This document shows, piece after piece, positions 9,461 through 51,058 of a stretch of 52,368 nucleotides of DNA. Every line of letters starts with the position of its first letter. Position 1 is the first letter of the stretch. The stretch comes from a virus (Duplodnaviria > Heunggongvirae > Uroviricota > Caudoviricetes), in the IMG/VR virus record IMGVR_UViG_3300028591_008384, one strand, 5' to 3'. The notes under the pieces were generated by a model. It searched no databases and had not been told where the DNA came from. It saw nothing but the letters and a program-made list of their open reading frames with translations. The translations under genes were made by a program, and so were the position numbers.

Positions 9461-10954
9461 TTAAGCCACATTTCTCAGCAGGTCGTCCATTCCCATGTGC
9501 CACAGGCACCACGCCGGCACCTCGCCGGCCCCGTTTCCCATCTTCACGATACAGATTTTCCCTATGTCGCGGGGACGGGTCCAGTCGAACTCGCAGTCCG
9601 TCAGGTACACGATGCCGTCATAGACCAGGTGTTCCCTTTCCAGGCGGTCAAGCACGCACTGCGGATTTGTCATGCCACCACCGAATACGTCCGTCTCGAA
9701 CGCGGTCTTGGGGTCATGTATGATTTCGGAGCAGATGCCGTCCCAGTAGCACAGGTCGAGCGCGGCATCCCCGATGAAGTTGTTCACCGTCTCGAAGCAC
9801 TTGTTCACCAGGTTCATGCTGAGCATGGAACCGGAAACGTCCACCGCGAACAGTATCTTCGGCTTGTCCTTCTTGCGCACATGGCCGGGCGCGATTGTGC
9901 CGTACCGGCGCAACACCAGGTTAGGCATAGACCAGGTCTGGCGCGTCGATGCGCCGAAGTTGCTCGTCATGAACATCCTGAACACGCTTGCCGCGTTCAC
10001 ATGGACACGGTTGGCCTCCTGGATTGCAAGGGGAACCTTGCCGGATAGGCCACCCTGGCCACTTGCGAACTGGGCCGATGCCACATCGCGGATATTGTCG
10101 GAAGCATCCGAGTCGTTACCCCAGTCCTTCATGTCGGCAGGGGCGCTGTTCGGGTCGAACATCTGCTGGATTGCCTGGTAGGATTCGCTCTTCTCGCCAT
10201 TTCCTTCACCGGAACTGTCGGCCTGTCCTTCACCGGAACCTTCCCCCTCGCTTTCTTCGCCGTCGGAGTCGTCGGATTCCCCGTTGCTGCCACCGCCGCT
10301 CTGGTTCTCCCCGTCTTCCTCATCCTCGCCATCGCCACCGGATTCTCCCTCGTGGTTCGGGCTGCCGTCTTCTTCATCGCCGTCTTCGCTCTCGTCGCTG
10401 TCCCCCTGGCCACCGTTGTCCTGTTCGCCGTCCGGGTTCTCCTCCTCGGTCTCGTTCTTGGATTCCTCCTGGGCCTGCATGAGCAGGTCGAACACCTTTT
10501 CGAGGGTGAGGTCCTTGACAGGATCGAAGCCGGCAGCGTCGAACTTGTCGGCATACGCCCAGATGCTCGGGAACAACTGGCCCACGATGGCGGAGTTGTC
10601 CCCCGCAGTCGTATCGACCACGTTACGGGCGTACTCGTAGACCACCAGGTCACTGGCGAGCCTGAACATGGCCTCCGGCATCTTTACACGGGTATCGCAA
10701 TGGTGCAGGGCTATCCTGAGGCAGTTGGCGTACACTACGGCACCGAGCAGGGACGGTTCCATCGCGTTGACGAACCAGTCACTGTATTCGAGATACGGTT
10801 GCCCGTCGGTGCATCCCACTCGCATCGTCACCGACTTGTCGCTCGTCATGCGCTTTTCGAGCATGATGTAGAACCCGAGCAGGATAGGCGCCCGGTTGGA
10901 CATCAGTGTCGCGGCATGGGACAGCTTGCCCTGTATTTCGGCCTCGTCAAACAT
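9461..10954 (-). CDS. VWA-domain protein with N-terminal DUF2201-like domain (probable MoxR partner)
   Basis: MIDAS DVSGSM, GGGMT, YLTD; long acidic D/E/G/S linker; LHH remnant of metallopeptidase motif. Confidence 0.85.
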   Translation of the reverse strand: MFDEAEIQGKLSHAATLMSNRAPILLGFYIMLEKRMTSDKSVTMRVGCTDGQPYLEYSDWFVNAMEPSLLGAVVYANCLRIALHHCDTRVKMPEAMFRLASDLVVYEYARNVVDTTAGDNSAIVGQLFPSIWAYADKFDAAGFDPVKDLTLEKVFDLLMQAQEESKNETEEENPDGEQDNGGQGDSDESEDGDEEDGSPNHEGESGGDGEDEEDGENQSGGGSNGESDDSDGEESEGEGSGEGQADSSGEGNGEKSESYQAIQQMFDPNSAPADMKDWGNDSDASDNIRDVASAQFASGQGGLSGKVPLAIQEANRVHVNAASVFRMFMTSNFGASTRQTWSMPNLVLRRYGTIAPGHVRKKDKPKILFAVDVSGSMLSMNLVNKCFETVNNFIGDAALDLCYWDGICSEIIHDPKTAFETDVFGGGMTNPQCVLDRLEREHLVYDGIVYLTDCEFDWTRPRDIGKICIVKMGNGAGEVPAWCLWHMGMDDLLRNVA

Positions 10955-11160
10955 TAGTCCTTCTTGAACACGATCCTAATCGGGTTGAAGCACTCGAACA
11001 CATCGCTGAACTCTTCCTTAGCAATCTCCATGAACGGGTCGTCTCCCTTGCCATACTTGACGAGGGTGCTACCGGTTGCAATGAGCAGGAAGCACGGGAG
11101 GGAGAACAGGAAGAATGCCCCCAGGATGATGAACATGATGATTTTGACAATGAGTTTCAT
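10954..11160 (-). CDS. small membrane protein
   Basis: MKLIVK start, GGAGG RBS, long hydrophobic N-terminus. Confidence 0.7.
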   Translation of the reverse strand: MKLIVKIIMFIILGAFFLFSLPCFLLIATGSTLVKYGKGDDPFMEIAKEEFSDVFECFNPIRIVFKKD

Positions 11161-11173
11161 ATTTCCTCCACGC

Positions 11174-11431
11174 CTAGTATTTCCAGGCATCGTTCATTTT
11201 GCCCGCAAAGAATTCATAGGGTTTGCGGATTACTCCGAGCTTTTCCTTCTCGGCCTTGGAGATACGGCGGAACGGGTCCTCCTCCAACTTGGACGACACG
11301 TATTCCACCTCGTAGTTCATGCAGACCTGCTTGGTGAAGTATTCGTTGAAATCGTCACCGGGCATCTGGCAGAAAGTGATGTATTTCTGCGGGTCTCCCG
11401 GCTTACGGTAGATTACTGATATTGTGTGCAT
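11174..11431 (-). CDS. hypothetical protein
   Basis: 85 aa ORF. Confidence 0.7.
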   Translation of the reverse strand: MHTISVIYRKPGDPQKYITFCQMPGDDFNEYFTKQVCMNYEVEYVSSKLEEDPFRRISKAEKEKLGVIRKPYEFFAGKMNDAWKY

Positions 11432-11589
11432 GGTGCATCCTCATCTGCTTCATACCTCCAGCAGACAGAGTTCGGGTTGTCTATTTCGCTGTTAGTTGGG
11501 TCATTGAAGTGACTGCCAAAGGAACAATCATTCCAGAATGCCCTGAGACAGTCGTCGCGGTGCTTGCAGAGCTTATACTGCCTGTCCAT
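11413..11589 (-). CDS. small Cys-rich hypothetical protein
   Basis: MDRQYKLC start with AGGAGG RBS, 58 aa. Confidence 0.6.
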   Translation of the reverse strand: MDRQYKLCKHRDDCLRAFWNDCSFGSHFNDPTNSEIDNPNSVCWRYEADEDAPCTQYQ

Positions 11590-12103
11590 CCTTGGCCTCC
11601 TTTTCCCAGTCGATCCATTCGCCGTCATCGCGCTTGAACTCGTTGTCGTACCATTCATGGCGGAGCTTCACACAATAGTTTCCCGGGCGCTTGCTTTCGC
11701 GGACGGCAGCCTTGATTGCCTGATCGCGGTCGCTGTAATTGATTGACATTTCGTCAAGCATCCCGCCCACGTCATCATACTGGAAGGATACTATATACAC
11801 TTCGTTAGTCCTGCAATGGCTTTTCATCATCTTGCAGTAGTCATCGAAGTGCTTGCGCAAGTCTTCCTGCAATTCCGCATGGAACGTGTCCAACCAATCC
11901 GAATAATCCATGGCAGCATACCGCTGGTCGCCAATTTCTCGATGATAGTGTTTGCAGACACACTGCTTTGCCTGTTCTTCGGTGAAAATGTAGACCCTAG
12001 CGGCATTCGGCTCCACGCCACAACCAGGGTCATACCAGCAGCGCACCTTGCCGTTACCGAGATGATAGCGACTGCCGCATGTAAGACAGCACTTGTTATT
12101 CAT
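11573..12103 (-). CDS. hypothetical protein with N-terminal Cys cluster
   Basis: 176 aa ORF; CCLTC..C..C..C. Confidence 0.75.
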   Translation of the reverse strand: MNNKCCLTCGSRYHLGNGKVRCWYDPGCGVEPNAARVYIFTEEQAKQCVCKHYHREIGDQRYAAMDYSDWLDTFHAELQEDLRKHFDDYCKMMKSHCRTNEVYIVSFQYDDVGGMLDEMSINYSDRDQAIKAAVRESKRPGNYCVKLRHEWYDNEFKRDDGEWIDWEKEAKDGQAV

Positions 12104-12348
12104 TATTGAATTTCCTCAGATACATTGTCTAGCGCCTCCACTGCCTTGCTGTGGCTGCATAAATCGTCCAGGTTGAACGGGCCAAGAAGGGTCACCAGGG
12201 CCATCACGCGGGCCTTCGGGGGCACCAGGTTCAAGTGTTTATTGTAACGGATACAGGCATCCGACCTGCTCTTTGCATGCACTATGATGAACGGAGTGAC
12301 AAATGTCCTGTCGTTATCGTTGAATGTCCCGACAAGGTATTTCAACAT
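12103..12348 (-). CDS. hypothetical protein
   Basis: MLKYLV start, GAGGTGG RBS. Confidence 0.7.
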   Translation of the reverse strand: MLKYLVGTFNDNDRTFVTPFIIVHAKSRSDACIRYNKHLNLVPPKARVMALVTLLGPFNLDDLCSHSKAVEALDNVSEEIQ

Positions 12349-13031
12349 GCTTCCACCTCGATTGCGTTTGTGCATTTCTTGTAGGCGGCCTCCGAATCCT
12401 TGGCCATTACAGTCACTGTTTCCTTTACAAGTCCCTTCCGCAGGCTCTTCTTCCTTGCCTTCATTTCGTCGGCAGAAAGGTAGCGGGTCACCTTGTAGGC
12501 ACGGTCGTCGCGGTCGTCGCGGAACAGTTCGGCCATCCGGTCGAACTCCTCGTCGCTAATTTCCCTGAACTGCATGTTCCTCAAGGTGTTGTAGTCGAGA
12601 ACGTAATGGAACTGACGGTCCAGGATGTCCTGGCATGCCATTTCGATGTACCCGCGGCCATACATCTGGTTTACCGCATGGATATATGTGACATGGAGGA
12701 ACTTCTTGGAGTTCCGGTACACGGGAACTCCCCGGAAATGGTAGGAGTTATCCCGGTATTCACGAGAATACAGGGACATCGGTTCGCAGGTGGAATAGAA
12801 CCCGCAGTCATCGACGACATCCTGGTAAGCGATAATCTCCTTGTCCATCAGGATGAAGTTCTTGCCGATGAACTTCTTGAAGAACCTGCCGACAAACCGG
12901 TCACGATCGGATGACCAGTAGTTATCCTTCTTCTTAATCTGCTCGTATTTCTCGTTTCTAGAGTCATCGTGGTTATCGAAAGTATCGATTACCCGTTTCA
13001 CGGATTCTTTGTCCAGCATGTCATATTTCAT
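12342..13031 (-). CDS. hypothetical protein (probable leaderless mRNA)
   Basis: 229 aa ORF, ATG 6 nt after -10. Confidence 0.8.
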   Translation of the reverse strand: MKYDMLDKESVKRVIDTFDNHDDSRNEKYEQIKKKDNYWSSDRDRFVGRFFKKFIGKNFILMDKEIIAYQDVVDDCGFYSTCEPMSLYSREYRDNSYHFRGVPVYRNSKKFLHVTYIHAVNQMYGRGYIEMACQDILDRQFHYVLDYNTLRNMQFREISDEEFDRMAELFRDDRDDRAYKVTRYLSADEMKARKKSLRKGLVKETVTVMAKDSEAAYKKCTNAIEVEAC

Positions 13032-13037
13032 ACGTTG

Positions 13038-13066
13038 AATATAGCAAAAAAGGCCCCCCGTGGCAA
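13038..13066 (-). promoter_or_regulatory. sigma70-like early promoter fused to a terminator
   Basis: TTGCCA-N17-TATATT; the -35 is the terminator loop. Confidence 0.85.
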
Positions 13067-13075
13067 CGGGGAGCC
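13046..13075 (-). terminator. intrinsic terminator closing the ncRNA island
   Basis: GGCTCCCCG-TTGCCA-CGGGGGGCC-TTTTTT. Confidence 0.85.
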
Positions 13076-13079
13076 TTCC

Positions 13080-13395
13080 TGAACAACGAAGTATCTACCA
13101 GTTAGGAAGCGTCTTAAAAGTTGGCAGCGCTTTTCCACTACTCAGTCACCACGCAAGGTCTAGTTATGCGATTGGACGCCGGCTTTGACGGACTGGTTAC
13201 CGTCACGAAGTCCGGCGGGATCCCTTTCATCCACCTACCCGTTATCCCGGCACGACGGGGTGTTCCTATTGCTAGGCGGTTTCTACTCGCTGCTGCTCTC
13301 TGACGTTGTTAGTGCCGGTGGAACCATAGCGTCCCGGTCCTTCAATGCGCCGTAGGGACCGGATTGGGCGAGTACGCTGCCGAGAAACCTCTCAG
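13080..13395 (-). ncRNA. unassigned ~310 nt pseudoknotted structured RNA
   Basis: GGTTTCT/AGAAACC, TACTCG/CGAGTA and TCCGGTCC/GGACCGGGA stems; crossing pairs CGGCAC/GTGCCG and GGCAGCG/CGCTGCC; no plausible ORF. Confidence 0.6.
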
Positions 13396-13397
13396 GC

Positions 13398-13577
13398 TCA
13401 ATCATCATACCAGTAGTCAGGCTTCTTCAAGAGCTCGGTCATGCGGCGCTCTCGGGCGACCTTCTTGAGGTCGATGCCGGCGCACCTGGCGAAACTCTTT
13501 GCCGCTTTTGCCTGTTTGTTCCAGCGGGCATTCTTTTGCTCCTGGGTTTCCTCGATATACTCTTTCTTCTCTTTCAT
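13398..13577 (-). CDS. small basic protein (59 aa, absent from the ORF track)
   Basis: MKEKKEYIEE...PDYWYDD*, GGAG RBS. Confidence 0.7.
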   Translation of the reverse strand: MKEKKEYIEETQEQKNARWNKQAKAAKSFARCAGIDLKKVARERRMTELLKKPDYWYDD

Positions 13578-13598
13578 GATTTCTCCATTTAATCTTAG

Positions 13599-13674
13599 TA
13601 TCCGCGGCAGGGCTCGAACCTGCGTAAATCACCTCTTTAGGAGAGAGGGGCCATTCCAACTTGACGACACGGAC
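13599..13674 (-). tRNA. tRNA-Arg(CCT)
   Basis: GTCCGTG/CGCGGAT acceptor; CCTCT-CTCCTAA-AGAGG anticodon arm; GCAGG-TTCGAGC-CCTGC T arm. Confidence 0.9.
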
Positions 13675-13692
13675 AAACTACATCAAAATAGA

Positions 13693-13771
13693 AGGTGCAA
13701 CGTGCACAGGAATTCAGCTCTCGGCACGCTCGACGCTCATCACGCTCCTCGGGATTTTAATCCTTGCACCT
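13693..13771 (-). ncRNA. unassigned ~80 nt structured RNA with box C/D-like motifs
   Basis: AGGTGCAA/TTGCACCT closing stem; GTGATGA...CTGA inside. Confidence 0.4.
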
Positions 13772-13779
13772 AAACAGGA

Positions 13780-13902
13780 AGCTCGGTGGCGCATTACCGG
13801 CCTTCCCCGAACGGTACGCCGGCCATTATTCCGCAACTTATGCTACTGCACTGGCCCCAAAGGATCTACCTGCGGGCTTACTTCCATCATCTCCACCGAG
13901 CT
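13780..13902 (-). ncRNA. unassigned ~120 nt structured RNA
   Basis: AGCTCGGTGG/CCACCGAGCT 10-bp closing stem; internal GGCCGG/CCGGT and GCC pairings. Confidence 0.5.
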
Positions 13903-13906
13903 CGTT

Positions 13907-14155
13907 TTAATCAGTTTCCTTCAAATCGCCAATGGCCGACATTACGGCGCCAGCAACACTCTTGATCTCTTGCTGGTTGTGCGTGTACAAAAGGTTCTCG
14001 TACTTGTCCAACTGAGAGTTGATGCTGGCAAGGACATCCTTCAACGTGGCCATCGGCCCGTACACCCTTATCAGGTCGAGGACCATTCCCTTGTGTTCCT
14101 TGGCGGAACAGAAGATTTCAAGGTCATTGTGAAATTCGTGTCTATCAGTAGCCAT
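13907..14155 (-). CDS. hypothetical protein
   Basis: MATDRHEF start, GGAGG RBS, 82 aa. Confidence 0.75.
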   Translation of the reverse strand: MATDRHEFHNDLEIFCSAKEHKGMVLDLIRVYGPMATLKDVLASINSQLDKYENLLYTHNQQEIKSVAGAVMSAIGDLKETD

Positions 14156-14177
14156 TTTTCCTCCATTAAAAGTAATC

Positions 14178-14262
14178 GACGCACGGCTTCCGGATTCCAA
14201 CACCGGGTTTCCTCCCGAATACAGGGAGGCGTCCTATGGAAATTAGACGATACCTATGCGCC
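14178..14262 (-). ncRNA. degenerate tRNA-like element (Glu-type body, 9-nt anticodon loop)
   Basis: TCGTCTAA..AGGAC D arm; CCTCC-CTGTATTCG-GGAGG; T loop TTGGAAT; irregular acceptor. Confidence 0.5.
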
Positions 14263-14325
14263 GTCTGCTTACCGAATGCGCCAGATGTTATCCATGGTTC
14301 ACCAGGCGCCCGTTGGGCAAATTCA

Positions 14326-14401
14326 TGGACGGTCTGGGACTCGAACCCAGGGCCAAGAGGTTATGAGTCTCCCGCTCGCATACCAACCGAGCTCACCGTC
14401 C
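14326..14401 (-). tRNA. tRNA with CAT anticodon (Ile2 or elongator Met)
   Basis: GGACGGT/ACCGTCC acceptor; loop CTCATAA; CTGGG-TTCGAGT-CCCAG; lacks initiator hallmarks. Confidence 0.88.
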
Positions 14402-14420
14402 TGAATAACTGCATTATCAA

Positions 14421-14603
14421 ACTCGTGCTCGGGGACGCCTTGAACTGCCTCCTTCGACCGTTTTACACCGCCAACGACCGAGACTATCGGTGGAAACCTA
14501 TCGTAGACATCCAAGATGCTACCTGTAGGAACGGGCCCATTGTCGTTTCATCATCCTCCCCACGGGAGAACTCCACGTCCGTAAATTTCCCTGGTGCATG
14601 GGT
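14421..14603 (-). ncRNA. 6S RNA-like rod
   Basis: 183 nt; apical hairpin at the midpoint (14503..14522); AACGAC/GTCGTT, CTCC/GGAG and GGACGT/GCGTCC stems flank a central bubble. Confidence 0.6.
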
Positions 14604-14608
14604 ATATT

Positions 14609-14683
14609 AGTGCCTCCGGGAGGATTCTATCCTCCGATGCGAAGCTCTTCAGGCTTACGCTCTACCAATTGAGCTAGAGCCAC
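14609..14683 (-). tRNA. tRNA-Phe(GAA), atypical
   Basis: TAGCTCAATTGGTAGAGC D arm; loop CTGAAGA; non-canonical T loop ATAGAAT; 2 extra nt before the acceptor. Confidence 0.7.
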
Positions 14684-14689
14684 CAAAAT

Positions 14690-15342
14690 TTTGCCCATGC
14701 GTTTGACAGCCGCATTTTGCCTTTGCTAAGGGCAAAACCCGTTGGGCAACGGGTGCCGGTCTCCACTGTCCCTGTTGACCGAGCCGAGGGAAACTACCTT
14801 CACCGGGGTTGTCAATACCCCGCCAGGGTAGACGACATGGCGAACGGCGTATAGCGAGGAACTTCCGCGCCACTTGGCCCTATGATGGGCACCGTCCGCT
14901 GTATTTTTCCGATTTCCCACAGAGGCACGTCCTACGGGGGCAACTTCATGATTAGAAGTCCTAGCTTCATCGGGAAGCTTAACAAACTTGTTCGCCGAGA
15001 TTTTGCGCAAGCCCTCTCGGCGGGAATCACTCTGGGTAATCACTTCCAGTTTGGCATCGGGATGCCGCAGCGCTTTCCAATAGCTGCCGGAACGTCCCTC
15101 GGGACACTACGCCACTGTTCCGATGCGGCATGCCGTGCCCTAACCCGTCAGCACGGTAACGGTGCATTAGTCGCCACCGATTTCCGTGGCTTTCATGCAG
15201 ACCATGGCGTTAACCGCAGCCATGGATACGGGCCCCGCGACACGAGGTGCCACGGGAACATCTCCCTACCTGGCCAGAGGGCTGCATGTGTGGTTCTTTG
15301 TTTCCACCCGCACGGAATACTCTTTCAACCGGTAACCCGGCC
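14690..15342 (-). ncRNA. large (~650 nt) ornate structured RNA, unassigned
   Basis: >12 hairpins and domain closures, e.g. CATGCAG/CTGCATG, CGCCGAGA/TCTCGGCG, CCCGTTG/CAACGGG, TTTTGCC/GGCAAAA; flanked by tRNA-like elements. Confidence 0.6.
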
Positions 15343-15345
15343 AAT

Positions 15346-15427
15346 GTGCTACAGCAGGTTTCGAACCTCGCGTCTCTCGCGTCAGTTGCCCGAGGCGGGT
15401 GTGTTCAACCAACTACACTACGCAGCC
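15346..15427 (-). ncRNA. tRNA-like RNA (Asp-type body) with anticodon replaced by a GCAA hairpin
   Basis: TAGTGTAGTTGGTTGAACAC D arm; TTCGAAA T loop; anticodon loop C-TCGG-GCAA-CTGA-C. Confidence 0.75.
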
Positions 15428-15434
15428 TGTTTTT

Positions 15435-15560
15435 CTTCCATGTGTCCAGTATGTCGCCGTGCACTGCGACAATTAAAGTGTCTGGCTTCCTTGGTGGTGC
15501 CAGCGGCCCACGGGGTCCTTTCGCAGCCCACGCGGGAATACTCGGTTCAACCATTTCAGG
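15435..15560 (-). ncRNA. unassigned structured spacer RNA
   Basis: CTGGC/GCCAG and GTCGC/GCGAC hairpins between tRNA-like elements. Confidence 0.3.
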
Positions 15561-15566
15561 CTATTG

Positions 15567-15663
15567 CGACACATGGAGGATTCGAATCCCCGACTGCCCC
15601 GGCATTTGCTGCCGGTGGCCGTTTTACCTGCCAGGGAGCGACCCCAGCCAAAACTCATGTGCA
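15567..15663 (-). ncRNA. tRNA-like RNA with hairpin-extended anticodon arm and expanded D loop
   Basis: GCACAT/ATGTGT acceptor; TTCGAAT T loop; GGCA-GCAAA-TGCC in place of the anticodon; GGGG-TCGC-TCCC in the D loop. Confidence 0.65.
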
Positions 15664-15782
15664 CTGACCTTTCTTCCTACGTCAAGTAAGTCGCCATTGT
15701 TCCTTTGGCGCCCGTTGTTAAAAATGATACAGTCCTTTCTCACTGTGACCTAGCCTACTCGTTCGACCGCTTTCGCGACTAT

Positions 15783-15865
15783 TCGGATCAACTGGGACTT
15801 TAACCCAGAGCCTCCAACGAGGGTTGCCCCGGTCGGTGTTCTAGTCATTTGGAACTAAAGACCCG
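15783..15865 (-). ncRNA. tRNA-like RNA with anticodon replaced by a GCAA hairpin
   Basis: CGGGTC/GATCCG acceptor; GTTC/GAAC D stem; CCGAC-C-GGG-GCAA-CCC-TC-GTTGG; CTGGG-TTAAAGT-CCCAG. Confidence 0.7.
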
Positions 15866-15897
15866 CGACTTTCGGCTTAGACCTGTTCTATCCAAAA

Positions 15898-15975
15898 AAG
15901 ATTCGATGGTGCCCGGTTTAGAACCGGGAAAATCCCACGAAGTGGGCACCACCTTCACACCACCATCGAATTCTT
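15898..15975 (-). ncRNA. tRNA mimic with extended acceptor stem (YrlA/Y-RNA-like architecture)
   Basis: ~14-bp closing stem; CCCGG-TTCTAAA-CCGGG T arm; shrunken CCCAC-TTC-GTGGG arm. Confidence 0.5.
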
Positions 15976-15977
15976 AG

Positions 15978-16049
15978 TAGCAGGAACCGGACTCGAACCG
16001 GTGTCTAAGGGTTATGGGCCCTTCAAGGAACCAACTCCTCCATCCTGCA
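15978..16049 (-). tRNA. initiator tRNA-fMet(CAT)
   Basis: 1:72 mismatch, A11-U24, three G-C pairs in the anticodon stem (AAGGG-CCCATAA-CCCTT). Confidence 0.9.
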
Positions 16050-16066
16050 ACTAAAAACTCAACAGC

Positions 16067-16073
16067 GTTTATA
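16067..16073 (-). promoter_or_regulatory. putative late promoter inside the RNA island
   Basis: TATAAAC 18 nt upstream of the tRNA-fMet 5' end. Confidence 0.5.
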
Positions 16074-16079
16074 TTCTAG

Positions 16080-16153
16080 CTCCGAAGAACGGAATCGAAC
16101 CGCTAACCGTCACATTACAAATGTGCTGCTCTACCTGGTTGAGCTACTCCGGA
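16080..16153 (-). tRNA. tRNA-Thr(TGT)
   Basis: TCCGGAG/CTTCGGA acceptor; loop TTTGTAA; AGCGG-TTCGATT-CCGTT. Confidence 0.88.
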
Positions 16154-16204
16154 TTATTTAGCTGATAGGTGTTATTAGGCTATATCTTGGACCTAATTCC
16201 ACCT

Positions 16205-16860
16205 TAGACAAAAAGCGCCGGGGTGGCTCATGGACTTAACCAGGGGAGAGCCACCCCTTGCCGCTTGCCGTTCTCGCATTTTTCGCTCCCTGGGGCGCCT
16301 CGGGGAGACAATCAAGTCATCCGAGGTACAATAGTAAGCAAGCGACTGTACCGCTACCGTAGCCTGTCGGGGCCATACCTTACCAGCCTTACTCGAGATA
16401 GCCGGGGACGGCATGTTGGTCTGCGGTAATAAAAGGTTGTCACCGGTGCGGTTAGGCGTGGGCTTTGCGGGCTTTCACCCTCGACCAGACGATGAACCCT
16501 AAGGTATTGTCCAGCCAAAGTGTTGCTAAGGATGTTGGAACGATATATAGTGATCGTGACGCTACCTGTCATAAGTTTCGCGGATAGGATTTGTCCCCTA
16601 TATTGCCCGCGCTGTTTGCCACACCTGTTAATGCCTGGTGGCCACGATGGCGCCGGAGTCCTAAGCACAGGCGCTATTAACACCTGCTCATTTAGACGAC
16701 CGCGTTCAATGGGTGGTAGCATTTTCTTCCAGCCCCTACGTGTCCCGGCCAGCCGGATGCGCATCCTGCACTGGTCTGCGAATTTCGGAAACCGAGGATA
16801 CCTAAGACGGCGCGACCGTCGGGCGGAATGCTACTAGAAACCCTATTCAGTATCCATTTA
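16205..16860 (-). ncRNA. large (~650 nt) ornate structured RNA, unassigned
   Basis: GGATAC/GTATCC, TAGCATT/AATGCTA, TGTTAAT/ATTAACA and GACGG/CCGTC stems; 3' GGGGTGGCTC/GAGCCACCCC then TTTTT. Confidence 0.6.
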
Positions 16861-16865
16861 AATTT

Positions 16866-17046
16866 ATCCGCATGCGTGGTGTTTGGGACTTCCACCCGTG
16901 TCAACGGCCTGTAACCGAACCCTGCATGCGGATCCTCGGGGAGAGCTACTTCCCCGGGGACCGGCTATTAAACACACTGGGCCTATTAGCGGGCCCTTAC
17001 CGCTTTACGCTCGCGTGGCCGGTACGCGGCTTCACGCATGCAACCT
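16866..17046 (-). ncRNA. ~180 nt structured RNA with two competing closing stems
   Basis: 3' CACGCATGCGGAT pairs with either 5' GCATGCGTG or internal ATCCGCATGC. Confidence 0.5.
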
Positions 17047-17089
17047 TCCCCAGAACAGGGTCGGCGTTATGGCATTTCGCCAAGATTTT

Positions 17090-17180
17090 AGTCCTCCGCC
17101 TTCGCGCTATGCCCGGAACACTCGAACCGGTGAATGCGCTCTGCCCCGTGCTGAAAGGCGGTCCTACCGACGGAAGGACT
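17090..17180 (-). ncRNA. tRNA-derived mosaic RNA
   Basis: 11-bp closure AGTCCT(T)CCGTC/GGCGGAGGACT; GGTAGGAC D-like segment; CCGG-TTCGAGTGTT-CCGG T-like arm. Confidence 0.45.
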
Positions 17181-17189
17181 CTAAAAGGA

Positions 17190-17290
17190 TGCGCATGACC
17201 GCAGTCCACCTTTATCTGCCAGTATTTGGCCGTCCCGGACACGGCAGGGCTCAGTAGAATCTGGAATTACCAGCCATACACTCATGCGCA
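17190..17290 (-). ncRNA. ~100 nt cloverleaf-like RNA
   Basis: TGCGCATGA/TCATGCGCA closure; CTGG/CCAG and GCCGT/ACGGC arms. Confidence 0.45.
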
Positions 17291-17296
17291 ATTTCG

Positions 17297-17654
17297 TGGA
17301 GGTGAGGGGAGTCGAACCCCTGTCCTAAACGCCATTCCAGTTCAACCATATCGCCATCAATCTATTCGGGCCCTGACCTGTTGCCCAAGGTGATCTAACC
17401 AGTGAGGGGTCTGGATTAAGGTAAGGTAGGCCATTCAATCCATAACTCCGGCCTAGATTTGAGAGATATGCACTTGGTCCCAGGATTTATTCCTCTCGCT
17501 TGTCCCAGGCAGCAGCATAACTACCGATTAGGCAGCCATGCGGCAGGCGAATGCATTGTCAGCATTTATTGTTTTAGTCCGTTTTTACGAAGCCACAGAC
17601 CAACTTCGGGCGAGGTCTCCATGGTCCGATGCCCAGTCGAAACCAAGCACCCCC
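17297..17654 (-). ncRNA. ssrA: tmRNA
   Basis: 5' GGGGGTGCTTGGTTTCGAC; 3' GGGGTTCGACTCCCCTCACCTCCA; tag ORF (A)ADNAFACRMAA* after ATAAAT. Confidence 0.95.
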
Positions 17655-17659
17655 AAAGA

Positions 17660-17845
17660 GCATGGGGCTAGTTCCCTATCACCCCAAGGAACCGGTCGAA
17701 CGAGTATCCAGGAAACTCAATCGTCCAATCGGCGACATTCGTAGGAACAAGGGGAATCCCGATTCGCTACCCCTCATGGGTCGTCCTCCCGTAAGGGAGC
17801 CAAGCAACCAAAACCCATGGACCACTTAATTGATCGTCCAGACTG
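17660..17845 (-). ncRNA. unassigned ~185 nt structured RNA
   Basis: CATGGGT/ACCCATG, GGGG/CCCC and GAGT/ACTC stems; 3' GGTTCC/GGGAACT plus GGGG/CCCC pseudoknot. Confidence 0.45.
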
Positions 17846-17856
17846 TTCCATTTTCG

Positions 17857-17930
17857 TCGGAGAAACCGGATTCGAACCGATGGCCTCGTGCGCCCAAGGC
17901 ACGCGCTCTACCAGACTGAGCTACACTCCG
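17857..17930 (-). tRNA. tRNA-Pro(TGG)
   Basis: CGGAGTG/TTCTCCG acceptor; CGTGC-CTTGGGC-GCACG; TTCGAAT T loop. Confidence 0.92.
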
Positions 17931-17934
17931 ATGT

Positions 17935-18352
17935 GCCCCTTTGCCTCACGGCGCCTTTGACGGCGAAACTCCCAGAGGGGGCTGACTCTTCCTACTTCTA
18001 CGATCATCCCCTTCCCGACGTTCTACGGTCAGTCCAGGAACAACGCCCCCAGCCGAGGGGCTTAGGTCGTTACGTCGGCGCACAGTTTGCACGCCCAGCA
18101 CATGGGGAGAATACCCGGATTGCATGCAACCCTGTACTCTTTACTATCAAGACCATGCCATGTTTTGGTACGACGAGGAACTACGATGCCGCTGCAGGCG
18201 GCCACTTTTCAAACTTTTCGGCGGTACGGGCAGGTAAAATCATAGGGGAGTAAACCCAGTTAAATACCCGTACCACCGCTGCACAATTAAAACGCTTCCG
18301 AACTGTCAATCTTCTGACCTGGCTCTCGGCCCGGTCGCCGTTCTTCCCGGCT
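17935..18352 (-). ncRNA. 5' structured RNA(s) of the island, ~420 nt, unassigned
   Basis: starts at the promoter TSS; GCCG/CGGC, GGTACGGG/CCCGTACC, GCCGC/GCGGC and GCCCC/GGGGC stems; no credible ORF. Confidence 0.5.
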
Positions 18353-18358
18353 GTACTT

Positions 18359-18387
18359 AATGTAGTAAATTACATCGCGAATGTCAA
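18359..18387 (-). promoter_or_regulatory. promoter of the ncRNA island
   Basis: consensus -35 TTGACA-N17-TACATT. Confidence 0.85.
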
Positions 18388-18403
18388 CCAAAAAGAGCGA
18401 AAT

Positions 18404-19387
18404 TTATTGCAGCTTATAATCTTTTCCAAGCTGCTTTATCAGTTCCATCGCAAATGGAGCATGTTTTTCCACATACCCAAGCAAATCTTCCCATTCGACG
18501 ATGCAAAGTTTGCTCAAACCCTTGGACAGATCCGTCAAGTTTGACCAGAACATGCCATCTGCATATTTGCACTCGTCCCTGAAATTCCAACTCAAGGGCG
18601 CGACACATGGACCGTGCAAGAATACCTCACCATGGCCATACTTATCCAGGGTAACGTCGTCGATACGCATTATCTTACTCCACTCATCATTTTTATCCCA
18701 GAAGACATACTTGCCTTTCAGACAGCCGGCGAGTACACCGAGAACCTGCTTCTCGATACCGTTATAGCTATTGACAATCTCGGAAACGTGCTCGGTGGCA
18801 TCCTTGATGGTATCAGTCAGCAGGGAGGTGAGGTCATCCCTTTTACCACGGAGTTCTTTGGTCACTTCCTGTATCTTCTTGTACACATAAAGGTCATGTC
18901 GTGCATTCACAGCATCCCAGTATTTCCTTATCATGGTGTCCACCATCGGGCCAAGGCGGTCATCCCCTATCACAGACGGCAACTTACCAAGTGCACCAAA
19001 CAGTGCCTTGTATGCTGCGGTATCTTCCGCCTGTTCTTTGAGAGCAACCGCGATTTCATCAAGGTATTTGAGGACGACCTCCACCAGCAGTTCGAACCAT
19101 AGTTGATGTTCAGCTTGCCATGAATCCGTTTCTTCCTTTGCCCGTTTCAATACAATATCAACGTCGGCCTGTCGTCCGCCATGGAGAGCGAGGACATCAT
19201 ATTGCTTACGTTCCGCCCTGGTTTTCTGGCGAAGCAGCGAATACAGGTAGTTAATTGCCGTGCCGTCCCTGCCAATGTAATGATATATGGAACGCTTGAA
19301 CTCGTCAACTGTAAAGTTGGCAAAATTCACTTTGTAGTGTTCCGAATATGCTTCCTTGGCTTCTTTGAGGAATTGCTTTCCGTCCAT
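18404..19387 (-). CDS. hypothetical protein
   Basis: 327 aa ORF. Confidence 0.85.
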   Translation of the reverse strand: MDGKQFLKEAKEAYSEHYKVNFANFTVDEFKRSIYHYIGRDGTAINYLYSLLRQKTRAERKQYDVLALHGGRQADVDIVLKRAKEETDSWQAEHQLWFELLVEVVLKYLDEIAVALKEQAEDTAAYKALFGALGKLPSVIGDDRLGPMVDTMIRKYWDAVNARHDLYVYKKIQEVTKELRGKRDDLTSLLTDTIKDATEHVSEIVNSYNGIEKQVLGVLAGCLKGKYVFWDKNDEWSKIMRIDDVTLDKYGHGEVFLHGPCVAPLSWNFRDECKYADGMFWSNLTDLSKGLSKLCIVEWEDLLGYVEKHAPFAMELIKQLGKDYKLQ

Positions 19388-19397
19388 AAGAACTGTC

Positions 19398-19847
19398 CTA
19401 TATGGTCACACCCCGGCGTTTCATTTCTGCGGTTCGAATCTTTTTCCACGTTTTGAACATATCTTTCGCCCGTTCCGATACGAGAATCTGCAATTCCTTG
19501 TCACCCAGCTTGCCCAATAGGTACTTCGGTACCATTTCGTCCTGCGGAGCAAACGAGGTATAGAGGATGAAGTCTTCGTTCCCGTCAAGGTCAACGCCCC
19601 ACTGAACTCTGTACATGTATCCGAAGCATCCGCTTACATGCGGGTCGCGCATTCCCTTGGGGAAGATGATGTATCCGTCTGGAGGATTCTTTAAGTATTC
19701 GCAATTCCGTGTAATGATGAATCCAGTATAGAACCCCATGTAGTCGAAGCCGTGGTCTTTGAAGTAGTCGAAGATTTCGACTCCTCGGTCCCCGAGTTTT
19801 TGTCGGAGGTGTTCTCTGTTTTCTTCATTTGCGTAGATTCTGGACAT
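19398..19847 (-). CDS. hypothetical protein
   Basis: 149 aa ORF, AAGGAGG RBS. Confidence 0.8.
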   Translation of the reverse strand: MSRIYANEENREHLRQKLGDRGVEIFDYFKDHGFDYMGFYTGFIITRNCEYLKNPPDGYIIFPKGMRDPHVSGCFGYMYRVQWGVDLDGNEDFILYTSFAPQDEMVPKYLLGKLGDKELQILVSERAKDMFKTWKKIRTAEMKRRGVTI

Positions 19848-20167
19848 ATCATTCCTCCTTTACGGTCGTTTTCTTTCGGTGACTTTACCAGCCTGCGACG
19901 GCAGTATGGGCAATGGCTCAACCCGTACACCGGAATACAATAGTTTACCTCAGGCGTGAAGTCTTCATCATAGTACAAATCAGAGTCGGTTGTATATTCG
20001 GCATAAACTGTCTGATAGAGGGTAGTTCCTTCTAGAGTCCATTTCACTTCGGACCTCAATCCAATCGATTGACCATGATGGTCATACACGGTTTCGTACG
20101 GCTGAATTGTTTCGCCTTTGCACAACGGGCAATCAATGTTCTGCTTTGTTTTACGCTTGGTTGCCAT
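19691..20167 (-). CDS. zinc-ribbon protein
   Basis: CPLC...CPYC; tail overlaps the next gene by 157 nt. Confidence 0.7.
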   Translation of the reverse strand: MATKRKTKQNIDCPLCKGETIQPYETVYDHHGQSIGLRSEVKWTLEGTTLYQTVYAEYTTDSDLYYDEDFTPEVNYCIPVYGLSHCPYCRRRLVKSPKENDRKGGMICPESTQMKKTENTSDKNSGTEESKSSTTSKTTASTTWGSILDSSLHGIANT

Positions 20168-20483
20168 GGATATCCCATATGGTAGTCTGTGTACCGGTCT
20201 TCAACTGGTGGAAGTTGGCCATCCATTCTGGGGTCTTGATCCAACGGAGCACGGCTTCCTGCTCGTGCTCTACCATGAACGGATCATTGCGCATCAGTTC
20301 CTGGGTTTCCTCGGACCAAAGTGTGAAGAACCAGTTCCCGAAGCGTTTCAGGCGGGTCTGGATGAAATTGTAGAACTTCACGCGACGGGCGTGGCCGTTC
20401 TTCCTCGCGGTCTTTTCGAGCTTCTTGAACTTATCGCGAAGGCTGATTGTCTTTCTTCCGATGATTACTGCGGGATGTGTCAT
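20151..20483 (-). CDS. hypothetical basic protein
   Basis: MTHPAV start, AGAGGA RBS, promoter 20509. Confidence 0.75.
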   Translation of the reverse strand: MTHPAVIIGRKTISLRDKFKKLEKTARKNGHARRVKFYNFIQTRLKRFGNWFFTLWSEETQELMRNDPFMVEHEQEAVLRWIKTPEWMANFHQLKTGTQTTIWDIHGNQA

Positions 20484-20508
20484 GTTTATCCTCTCTTTTG
20501 ATACTGCA

Positions 20509-20537
20509 AATGTAGCATCTTCGGAAAGGAGTGGCAA
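20509..20537 (-). promoter_or_regulatory. sigma70-like early promoter
   Basis: TTGCCA-N17-TACATT directly after the upstream TAG. Confidence 0.85.
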
Positions 20538-21005
20538 CTACCCGCGCCGCAGGCTGAATTTTGGCTCTATTCGCCGGCCACGGTCATAATCATCGCACGC
20601 GAACTTTGGCTTACAGTCCTCGCGATACAGGTATGCAGCCATGTCGGCAAGGTCGTCCAGGTTCGACTTGGTCCACCCCATGCCGCGGGTCAGATCCAGC
20701 CACACGATATATGCGGTTTCCCTGTCCAGCCGTGAATCCGGGTTCAGTGTTTCCCCGGTCAAGTCGGCATAGAACTGCATGGGCCCGTCACAGGACCGGC
20801 CATACTCAAGATACTTCCGATATGTCAGCTTCGACGTGTCGATGTTATGGAAACCCCGGAACTGGCACTGGTCACTGAACGCAACCTGGACAAAGGTGTC
20901 CATTACCCTCTCCATGTTCCGGTCGAGCCACAACTGTTCTATCGGGTCATCGGAAACCAACTTGAAATTGGGGTCTTCATTAAATAATGGAACTGCCTTG
21001 AACAT
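20538..21005 (-). CDS. hypothetical protein
   Basis: 155 aa ORF. Confidence 0.8.
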   Translation of the reverse strand: MFKAVPLFNEDPNFKLVSDDPIEQLWLDRNMERVMDTFVQVAFSDQCQFRGFHNIDTSKLTYRKYLEYGRSCDGPMQFYADLTGETLNPDSRLDRETAYIVWLDLTRGMGWTKSNLDDLADMAAYLYREDCKPKFACDDYDRGRRIEPKFSLRRG

Positions 21006-21014
21006 ATTGTATCC

Positions 21015-21224
21015 TTACATGAAGTCGAACTCGCTGGGCATGTCCCGGAATTCCTCGTATGCCTTCAGGTTTTTCCTGGTAAGTAGCCAGTATATGGGAT
21101 TGATTACAAGCATCAGCAGCATCGCATAGAATACATACAGGAAAATGCCGATAATGCACAGCGCGATTACGGCTTCAACCAGGAGGACAGGCGCAATGAT
21201 TATCTTAAAGAGAATTTCTTCCAT
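21015..21224 (-). CDS. small membrane protein
   Basis: 69 aa, long hydrophobic stretch. Confidence 0.75.
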   Translation of the reverse strand: MEEILFKIIIAPVLLVEAVIALCIIGIFLYVFYAMLLMLVINPIYWLLTRKNLKAYEEFRDMPSEFDFM

Positions 21225-21227
21225 TTG

Positions 21228-21407
21228 TCACTCCGCATAGATATTGGTGATTGCCAGGTTGCATATTCCAGTGCCGGAATATTTAGTCCTTGCCTTGCGG
21301 ATTGCTTCGTCTACGTCATCCGCATAACAGCTGAAATTTGTCTTGTTGTCCACTCGTCCATTAAATTTCCAATCATTCCATTCAACGAGCATTACATATT
21401 TCTTCAT
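21228..21407 (-). CDS. hypothetical protein (59 aa, absent from the ORF track)
   Basis: MKKYVMLVEW...NIYAE*, GGAGG RBS. Confidence 0.7.
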   Translation of the reverse strand: MKKYVMLVEWNDWKFNGRVDNKTNFSCYADDVDEAIRKARTKYSGTGICNLAITNIYAE

Positions 21408-21437
21408 CTACCGACCTCCTTATGTACCATCAATATG

Positions 21438-21656
21438 TCATTTCTCGAACTTCACTTGGCGCTGACTGATGTCCCCACACTTCTTGCACCGAAGGACATA
21501 CAGGTATGCGATTGGAATATCGCCGTTGTCACCCTGCACGGGGAGTTCGCGGACGGCTTCCCATTCATGCTTGCACCGGCGTTCAATCAGCTTGATAATG
21601 ATGCCGGTGATTCCCCAGGCAACACAGATTAAGAGCACAACAATGAGTTCAGTCAT
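21438..21656 (-). CDS. small membrane-anchored zinc-ribbon protein
   Basis: N-terminal TM, CKHEW...CKKCG. Confidence 0.75.
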   Translation of the reverse strand: MTELIVVLLICVAWGITGIIIKLIERRCKHEWEAVRELPVQGDNGDIPIAYLYVLRCKKCGDISQRQVKFEK

Positions 21657-32574: not shown

Positions 32575-32603
32575 TTGCCAACAGTCACATTCTTTGCTAC
32601 ATT
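32575..32603 (+). promoter_or_regulatory. divergent sigma70-like early promoter
   Basis: TTGCCA-N17-TACATT back-to-back with 32542..32570. Confidence 0.85.
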
Positions 32604-51029: not shown

Positions 51030-51058
51030 AATGTAGCATTCCAGGTGACCCATGGCAA
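51030..51058 (-). promoter_or_regulatory. sigma70-like early promoter
   Basis: TTGCCA-N17-TACATT directly after TAG. Confidence 0.85.

Follow-up and report, generated by a model that had tools for sequence, protein, structure and literature searches.

What does a phage keep in more than 5 kb of DNA that hold almost no credible protein gene? This question is raised by a 52,368-nucleotide (nt) stretch of caudoviricete DNA (IMG/VR record IMGVR_UViG_3300028591_008384, hereafter the window), in which the minus-strand unit 13046-18387 forms a 5.3 kb island of RNA genes, with a promoter at its head and a hairpin terminator at its end. A first-pass annotation made from the letters alone had described the region as a polycistronic unit of non-coding RNAs, a description now sustained by one conserved promoter and terminator, by gaps that gene callers leave empty, and by RNA contigs that bridge the genes and are deeper than those of the flanks. 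We consider it probable that the locus is a phage RNA-gene island working as one transcription unit, an enlarged and remodelled locus of the kind known from the transfer RNA (tRNA) region of phage T4. All features below lie on the minus strand unless stated otherwise.

The core of the comparison was a set of 11 operon-bearing relatives, retrieved through homologues of an internal protein of 82 amino acids (aa); the IMG/VR contigs G001 and G002 were reached through flanking and internal proteins, and 16 additional loci came from an exact-pattern scan of Joint Genome Institute (JGI) metagenomes. The relatives are uncultivated phage contigs of ~200-470 kb, and BLAST searches, near and distant, against 50,697 deposited phage genomes returned tRNA-sized matches only and no cultured relative. 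A look-up of sequencing runs traced the region's sequence to gut (rumen) metagenomes of sheep and cattle in 12 studies, with some 20 DNA runs containing 30-50% of it. Since the relatives are of this size and the sequence occurs in the rumen, the phage, of sheep rumen, is, as far as sequence can place it, a member of an uncultivated rumen jumbo phage family.

Is the unit really so poor in protein genes? Two small open reading frames (ORFs) had been thought credible, and it is these two that comparison retains. ORF82 (82 aa, 13907-14155), listed together with a 5′ untranslated region at 14156-14325, is preceded by GGAGG and has 88 homologues in databases, with the frame unbroken in 10 of 10 relatives; in the RNA contig of one relative its substitutions fall at a 3-base spacing. 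ORF59 (13398-13577), encoding a small basic protein of 59 aa, is preceded by GGAG, is intact in 6-8 relatives and figures in the relatives' gene calls as a gene of 55-59 aa. A Pfam search gave no match for either. All other ORFs of at least 60 aa on both strands, including plus-strand frames of 261, 247 and 168 aa, are cut or carry stops in most relatives, with two exceptions, 15473-15664 (minus) and 17459-17671 (plus, antisense within the transfer-messenger RNA gene described below), the openness of which reflects nothing more than 94-97% identity of the DNA. In eight relatives, gene callers predict nothing in the corresponding gap of 2-3.8 kb. It could be proposed that parts of the unit nevertheless encode proteins, for example the plus-strand ORFs of 261 and 168 aa or a minus-strand ORF of 136 aa, and both the long ORFs on the two strands and a 170-aa reverse-strand ORF that one gene caller predicts in relative L041 speak for this; yet stops or the loss of whole modules break these frames in relatives, apart from ORF82, ORF59 and the two identity-driven frames, and the callers see nothing there in other relatives, so that we give the proposal almost no credence. 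An alternative genetic code was considered as well and rejected, the flanking genes reading normally with table 11.

Known RNA genes fill only part of the space. ARAGORN detected five tRNAs and a transfer-messenger RNA (tmRNA), to which Rfam adds a partial sixth tRNA match. The five tRNA genes, each found by both programs, are tRNA-Pro (UGG; 17856-17930, 60.5 bits), tRNA-Thr (UGU; 16079-16153, 59.1 bits), an initiator-like tRNA-Met (CAU; 15977-16049, 50.5 bits), a second tRNA with a CAU anticodon (14326-14401, 49 bits) and tRNA-Arg (CCU; 13598-13674, 43.6 bits), the last adjoined by the spacer U7b (13675-13778), which is 90-95% conserved. On reading of the sequence, the tRNA-Met bears the initiator hallmarks of a 1:72 mismatch and three G-C pairs adjoining the anticodon loop. 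The second CAU tRNA is probably tRNA-Ile2, because in the related islands L036-L038 a tRNA with the anticodon UAU replaces it at the same position. The one-piece tmRNA (17294-17654, tag ADNAFACRMAA) matches RF00023 over model positions 1-374 with 105.9 bits against a cut-off of 47 and carries the tag reading frame; islands L036-L038 are without a tmRNA, and no headless-tmRNA module was detected in the island. The first-pass count of six tRNAs and a tmRNA holds for five intact tRNAs and the full tmRNA; the sixth tRNA match is a decayed tRNA-Phe (GAA; 14608-14680), which Rfam matches only in part (14676-14619, 37 bits, model positions 8-63 only) and ARAGORN only at the 80% threshold. Related phages have intact tRNA-Phe(GAA) genes to which it can be aligned, whereas its own T loop, AUAGAAU, departs from the consensus and its acceptor stem is broken. 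Intact tRNA makes up only ~7% of the unit length, and the known RNA genes and two ORFs together amount to ~1.25 kb, leaving ~4.1 kb (76%) with neither an Rfam family nor a conserved ORF. An Rfam search at E<=10 over 12900-18500 explains none of this remainder, in keeping with the earlier statement that most of the length fits no recognised RNA family. The same search returned no match for 6S RNA, RNase P RNA or YrlA, which other first-pass notes had brought up, and on the same ground self-cleaving ribozymes and group I introns were rejected.

The signals bounding the unit are conserved. The predicted sigma-70-type promoter TTGACA-17-TACATT (18359-18387), recovered by a promoter scan, keeps both hexamers in 11 relatives while its 17-nt spacer diverges, and most of them show the extended -10 form TGCTAYATT; the transcript probably starts near 18352. 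At the other end, the 3′ region (13046-13135) closes with an intrinsic terminator made of a 9-bp hairpin (13075-13052) and a T6 run (13051-13046), whose stem shows compensatory changes in relatives, so that promoter and terminator alike stand where they had been read. The terminator loop TTGCCA and the downstream TGCTATATT together supply the next gene with a promoter of the phage's own class (13038-13075), and as the stem covaries, both this loop and the -10 element TGCTATATT remain invariant in 10 relatives. Eleven further window sites belong to the class TTGCCA-N17-TGCTACATT, 10 of them on the minus strand; the recurrent motif TTGCCA-N17-(TG)CTACATT lies at 51058, 46518, 41235, 38151, 27424, 20537, 13066, 7096, 6611 and 2253 on the minus strand and at 32575 on the plus strand. 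At six sites an ATG stands just 6 nt past the -10 element, and because of this short distance the genes there may be expressed as leaderless mRNAs. Within the unit, promoters of this class lie only at its two ends, a motif scan having found none inside, and in most relatives one promoter of the class heads the island and the next one coincides with the island terminator. A late-type motif at 16067 that had been proposed to re-fire the distal half did not hold up, the motif being neither enriched nor positioned upstream of genes. In L027 and L029 a second TTGACA-class promoter occurs ~1.4 kb into the island, in a module absent from the window, and because of it some islands may be composed of two transcription units.

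What, then, are the ~4.1 kb made of? BLAST breakpoints against the 11 relatives recur at identical window positions, and by these the remainder divides into ~15 modules of 80-290 nt. The leader ML (17931-18352), present in 11 of 11 relatives, comprises a 5′ part, ML5 (18216-18352), and a core of ~285 nt (17931-18215, 11 of 11 relatives) that ends at tRNA-Pro. Between tRNA-Pro and the tmRNA lies MS (17655-17855, ~200 nt, immediately 5′ of the tmRNA), and past the tmRNA follow M1 (17088-17293), the rare M2 (16856-17087, in 1 of 11 relatives), M3 (16570-16855, 286 nt, 92-98% identical), a variable 67-nt linker (16569-16503) and M4 (16205-16502), which ends in a 10-bp hairpin (16257-16220) followed by GGCGC and T5. 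Beyond the Thr and Met tRNA genes come M5a (15894-15973, in 6-8 relatives with its U run kept), M5 (15729-15893, in 11 of 11 relatives at 89-98% identity), M6 (15475-15728, in five relatives at 96-97%), M7 (15260-15474, in seven at 93-97%), M8 (14983-15259, in only two), M9 (14677-14917, with a core at 14845-14687 found in five relatives, including the minimal 2-kb islands) and the rare M10 (14402-14605, in one relative, L025). Near the 3′ end stand Element A (13779-13902), a multi-stem RNA of 124 nt present in 11 of 11 relatives, and M11 (13136-13397), which separates ORF59 from the terminator as an optional insert of 262 nt and is found in 3 of the 11 operon-bearing relatives at 96-100% identity.

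These modules come and go separately. Only ML, M5 and Element A are universal, the remaining modules occurring in one to eight relatives, and island length spans from ~2 kb in L036-L038 to the 5.3 kb of the window. In L025, M10 directly follows M8 and M9 comes later, so that M9 and M10 are swapped relative to the window, and a sub-part of M2 (17084-16970) recurs in G002 as a 92% match at another genomic place, beside Element A. Some modules exist as divergent alleles: M1 is 97% identical to its counterpart in L041 against 74-75% in L023 and L025, and MS, with two alleles ~76% identical, is 100% identical to that of L025 against 75-77% in L041 and L032. A self-comparison of the operon found no paralogous modules and no sequence shared between modules. 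Judged from these alignments, each module behaves as an independently inherited unit, which a related phage may have or lack, carry in another order or replace by an allele only ~75% identical. This independence tells against reading 16860-16205 and 15342-14690 as one large ornate RNA each, of the ROOL and GOLLD size class, with the modules as mere domains: M8, M9 and M10 are separated and reordered in L025, L036-L038 retain only the M9 core of the three, and the 5′ half of M3 is missing from four of the eight relatives that have its 3′ half (16709-16570). ROOL and GOLLD do occur near phage tRNA islands (PMC12286853), and the 3′ half of M3 remains together with M4 in eight relatives, so the idea is not without footing; covariance-model searches, however, gave no match to ROOL, GOLLD or another large RNA at E<=10 in the window, and none at the gathering threshold in 11 related loci. 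ROOL and GOLLD identity is excluded by these searches and by the independent assortment of modules, and we regard the reading as very improbable.

Are the modules RNAs in their own right? Their conservation often exceeds that of neighbouring protein genes. Against L032, protein genes are 77-78% identical while the ML core and M5 reach 92% and M7 95%, and against G001, where a protein gene has fallen to 66%, the ML core stands at 95%, M3 at 93% and M5 at 94%; taken together, the ML core, M3, M5, M5a and M7 stay at 92-95% in these comparisons, and the ML core is 92-97% identical even where protein genes are at 66-78%. Covariation was scored as base pairs changed on both sides and compared with slid controls; the alignments of M1, MS and M4 were also inspected by eye. 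The clearest case is Element A, for which an alignment of 16 copies from 15 phage contigs shows 14 of 24 pairs changed on both sides with 97.9% of cells paired, a result that 0 of 500 shuffles reach and for which slid controls give at most 3. Its invariant loops (e.g. GUAGCAUAAGU) are kept across phages with no other island sequence in common, and a covariance model of it, R1, finds one copy per phage and two in G001. Both sides have also changed in 12 of 57 pairs of MS (controls at most 2), in 9 of 79 pairs of M4 (at most 2), whose 3′ hairpin covaries with the U run kept, and in 11 of 55 pairs of M1. Smaller counts come from ML5 (five pairs in two hairpins, controls at most 1), from the ML core (compensatory changes in four hairpins, five pairs, controls at most 2) and from M9 (three pairs, controls 0). 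Three compensated pairs are valid in M5, where the closing stem and a GNRA hairpin show compensatory changes; a count of eight in a larger set was discarded, having been produced by the recombinant contig L058 with its unrelated 3′ half. Compensatory changes therefore support a folded RNA, as predicted from alignment, for the leader, MS, M1, M4 and Element A, and on this comparative footing at least six modules are RNAs whose fold selection has maintained. The first-pass annotation had suggested a synteny and covariation comparison across related contigs, and it found the modules conserved and shuffled, with compensatory changes in several; its picture of segments each bounded by a closing stem is upheld by covariation for Element A and by one relative for M5, and is not shown for the other modules.

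Neither Element A nor the ML core has an Rfam match at E<=10. Among targets complementary to the invariant Element A loop, 13 matches were found against 7.7 expected, which is not significant, and the best of them, in the tmRNA, has two mismatches. An exact-pattern scan of GTDB found the ML core nowhere and Element A on only one 317-kb contig labelled 'Bacteroidaceae MAG' (metagenome-assembled genome), which has a 30-tRNA array and is probably phage. Mis-binning of jumbo phages probably accounts for the contigs with such labels (L044 = JAFXNA010000004.1, 317 kb, and the NCBI records from which P0070 and L032 derive), on which 30-tRNA arrays, Element A or the island itself are found. Shine-Dalgarno-led ORFs and TTGACA-type promoters argue, on sequence features, against a Bacteroidota host.

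A further question is where such modules come from, and several of them resemble tRNA. In M5 a closing stem encloses a body of putative tRNA descent (15865-15783), with a GCAA-capped hairpin at the end of its anticodon arm, alongside the GNRA hairpin; its T loop is the canonical UUCGAGC in L023 and L032, a proposed acceptor pair changes from C-G to U-A in L032, and Rfam gives a weak, marginal match to the tRNA-like mascRNA at 15830-15785. The tRNA-like body of M6 (15663-15566) has a canonical T arm and an ARAGORN call at the 80% threshold, and that of M7 (15427-15346) scores 24.7 bits with the Rfam tRNA model, below the 29-bit cut-off. All three bodies have an acceptor stem and T arm with a small capped hairpin in place of the 7-nt anticodon loop. 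M5a is simpler, an 11-bp closing stem round a UUCG hairpin and a T-arm-like hairpin, then U6, with a minimum free energy (MFE) z-score of -2.96, resembling a terminator-like tRNA minihelix, and the ML5 region yields a weak tRNA-Leu-like call (18360-18281) under relaxed ARAGORN settings. Weak computational support thus exists for the derivation of M5, M6 and M7 from tRNAs that have lost the anticodon loop. Judged by the standard for canonical tRNAs (RF00005 above 29 bits, a full cloverleaf and a 7-nt anticodon loop), none of these tRNA-like ghosts qualifies, and the remaining ones were detected solely by ARAGORN at the 80% threshold; where the first-pass annotation counted at least six ghosts, five or six candidates can be named, each with weak computational support. 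Its suggestion that tRNA-like elements serve as processing punctuation is possible for the M5a-M7 block and cannot explain the M1-M4 block (1.1 kb, tmRNA to tRNA-Thr), because that block has no tRNA-like element.

Distant relatives suggest an ancestry for the whole. In L015, L021, L022 and L044, arrays of at least 30 tRNAs start with Pro, Element A, Asn, Thr, Ala, Gln, Met and Phe, and the tRNA genes surviving in the window follow this order; the matching gene order leads us to infer that the island is what reduction and remodelling have left of the head of such a 30-plus tRNA array. In the array of L021, three full 71-position Rfam tRNA matches span 126-139 nt (10233-10361, 10466-10591 and 13169-13307), representing tRNA-shaped genes with inserts of 55-65 nt. 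Relatives' islands also hold selfish genes, and protein genes inserted there always have the orientation of the unit. Genes for DUF559 (Vsr-like endonuclease) proteins lie within the islands L025 (4723-5532) and L041 (7634-8404), co-oriented with the RNAs and recalling segB of the T4 tRNA cluster. TnpB genes (OrfB_IS605 / Cas12f1-like) lie in or a few kb from islands (L013:10173-11471, L023:2446-3630, L027:4387-5613, L028:2926-4050, L029:3009-4319 and L034:15631-18123), that of G001 following immediately after Element A in the place of ORF82. HEARO, the IscB omega RNA (RF02033), has no Rfam match in the window and occurs only as an insertion in G001 (IMGVR_UViG_3300037454_000941; L013:6725-6953, 121.6 bits), between tRNA-Pro and the tmRNA and with no adjacent IscB gene.

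Such traces invite a bleaker account, in which the ~4 kb would be mostly functionless debris of a decaying tRNA array mixed with scars of selfish elements (homing endonucleases, TnpB, IscB), transcribed only from lying between working tRNA genes. The compensatory changes that maintain helices in six modules, including allele pairs only ~75% identical, are hard to square with this account, as are core modules more conserved than adjacent protein genes, the occurrence of the ML core, M5 and Element A in every one of the 11 relatives, and the loops of Element A that stay invariant across phages sharing nothing else in the island. It can nevertheless claim the clear decay of tRNA-Phe, the three anticodon-less bodies, the same-order arrays of at least 30 tRNAs in distant relatives, the DUF559 genes, TnpB gene and HEARO RNA of relatives' islands, the variation of module content between 2 and 5.3 kb, and M10 and M11, which are without a fold signal. 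We find it decidedly unlikely as an explanation of the locus, though a little less so than the large-RNA reading.

Is the island present as RNA? Contigs of four metatranscriptome runs were aligned to 10000-21500, and one sheep-rumen run, X2, contains 80% of the region's sampled words. The X2 contigs reach depths of 7.5-140 within the unit, compared with 4.2-5.0 over the flanking genes, and the tmRNA has the highest depth in all four runs. A bovine run holds a 90-95% relative with modules joined differently and depths of 85-420. RNA contigs bridge tRNAs and modules (e.g. 13735-14972 and 15444-16999), and sequencing adapters abut the tmRNA 3′ end at 17296/17297 in two studies (sheep-rumen runs X12 and X22). 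One contig gives an adapter-bounded fragment, 15394-15260, whose 3′ end equals the M7/M8 border obtained by comparison.

Several points weigh against the interpretation as one transcription unit of structured RNAs. The RNA evidence consists of assembled metatranscriptome contigs, and because of this it shows presence in libraries only; DNA carry-over, ends, strand and co-transcription stay unproved, and individual runs leave some stretches of the unit uncovered. Terminator-like hairpins with U runs, which the first-pass annotation had missed, occur at three sites inside the unit, at the M4 end (16257-16210), in M5a (15973-15894) and at the M5 end; they suggest attenuation, and could instead break the unit up into two or three transcripts. 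The alignments from which structures were predicted also served to score them, and the high identity of modules could partly come from recent exchange between phages and not from purifying selection. Moreover, M3, M6, M7, M8 and M11, at 95% identity or more, are too alike among relatives to give covariation power, M2 and M10 are known from only one or two relatives, and M10 (MFE z-score +1.23) and M11 (+0.35) fold no better than shuffled sequence, so that M2, M10 and M11 are without structural support. Single-sequence MFE z-scores are otherwise mostly modest (-0.2 to -3.0, with -2.73 for M8) and do not decide structure, and an MFE fold of the whole transcript (span limit 320 nt), which misses even tRNA borders, was dropped as evidence.

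How far, then, does the island resemble systems already known? In T4, eight tRNAs, segB mRNA and the RNAs called species I and II all come from a primary transcript of ~1.75 kb, in a region that varies among related phages (PMC2330249). As there, the window has a co-oriented tRNA cluster with extra non-tRNA RNA genes (five tRNAs, a tmRNA and ~15 conserved modules on one strand, set beside the extra stable RNAs of T4) and a single promoter at the head with a terminator behind the last RNA gene, which are motifs and their conservation, not mapped transcript ends. Embedded protein genes are likewise shared, namely ORF82 and ORF59 here and the DUF559 homing-endonuclease genes of L025 and L041 and the TnpB gene of G001 in relatives, and content differs between relatives in both systems. 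The differences are the length (5.3 kb versus 1.75 kb), the number of non-tRNA modules (~15 versus two), the full tmRNA, the absence of sequence similarity, and the fact that co-transcription and processing are here deduced, not measured. GOLLD and ROOL, the latter first found in rumen data (PMC12286853, PMC5737381), are likewise phage-borne, structured and located beside or around tRNA genes, but form one RNA of 600-800 nt, whereas the units here measure 80-290 nt and assort independently. A tRNA array unit is defined by at least 20 tRNA genes at a density of at least 2 per kb (PMC4758250); the distant relatives L021, L022 and L044 fall within this definition, with the same head order and Element A inside, whereas the window has 5-6 tRNAs at ~1 per kb. 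Like mascRNA, the tRNA-like domain of tmRNA and bacterial YrlA, the modules M5, M6, M7 and M5a keep acceptor and T-arm features and are without an anticodon loop, but all their scores lie under the family cut-offs, with no match to YrlA or 6S RNA. Huge phages resemble the relatives, whose ~200-470 kb contigs carry tRNAs and a tmRNA, and the survey of such phages by Al-Shayeb et al. (2020, PMC7162821) counts tRNAs and tmRNAs without describing RNA modules between them. Finally, a comparative screen of phage intergenic regions in IMG/VR yielded ~8,500 candidate structured RNAs, with tRNA-like candidates of 29-151 nt (PMC10690425); no operon-scale islands are described there, while Element A, which occurs in 8 IMG/VR contigs, could be listed in that catalogue. 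The kind of locus is already known, and the window is an extreme variant of it with several well-supported new RNA structures.

A plausible scenario for the T4-like island can be put together from these elements. RNA polymerase would make long precursors, attenuated at the three internal hairpin-plus-U-run sites, from which host RNase P, RNase Z and endonucleases would free the tRNAs and the tmRNA, while the stem-closed modules would persist as stable small RNAs. ORF82 and ORF59 would be translated from the same transcripts, like segB in T4. The island itself would descend from the first part of a 30-plus tRNA array through tRNA loss and decay together with gain and exchange of RNA modules, a process that the homing-endonuclease and TnpB genes of relatives' islands may have helped. 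Most likely it would serve to take over the host's machinery for translation and RNA processing, or to protect it. Distant ORF82 homologues, on the huge-phage contigs L030, L034 and L042, sit in a block with RtcB RNA ligase, PTH2-like and NadR-like genes and no RNA island, and in L030, L034 and L042 a gene of 59-63 aa is located two genes downstream of ORF82; because of these RtcB, PTH2-like and NadR-like neighbours, ORF82 may be part of an RNA-repair or translation gene set.

A bolder proposal, to which we would grant an outside chance, goes beyond this scenario. The island would be a recombining library of at least 12 undescribed structured-RNA families, including anticodon-less tRNA mimics and Element A, that act in trans as RNA agents of counter-defence or take-over, being decoys or inhibitors of host tRNA-targeting nucleases, RNA-processing enzymes and ribosome-rescue factors, and that are traded among rumen jumbo phages in the way of anti-defence protein genes.

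Annotations of phage tRNA clusters usually show tRNAs with nothing in the gaps between them, and here the gaps are the main content. As the alignments indicate, at least six of these gaps are selected RNA structures without a curated family, more conserved than phage proteins and detectable in rumen RNA. Element A, M1, MS, M4, the ML core and the anticodon-less tRNA bodies offer bounded candidates for new RNA classes. We know of no report that establishes the function of the T4 species I and II RNAs, to which the island stands as a large relative, and it provides a natural experiment in the evolution of modular RNA genes. If the modules were indeed anti-defence or translation-hijacking RNAs, they would open an RNA-based side of the arms race between phages and hosts in an economically important microbiome.

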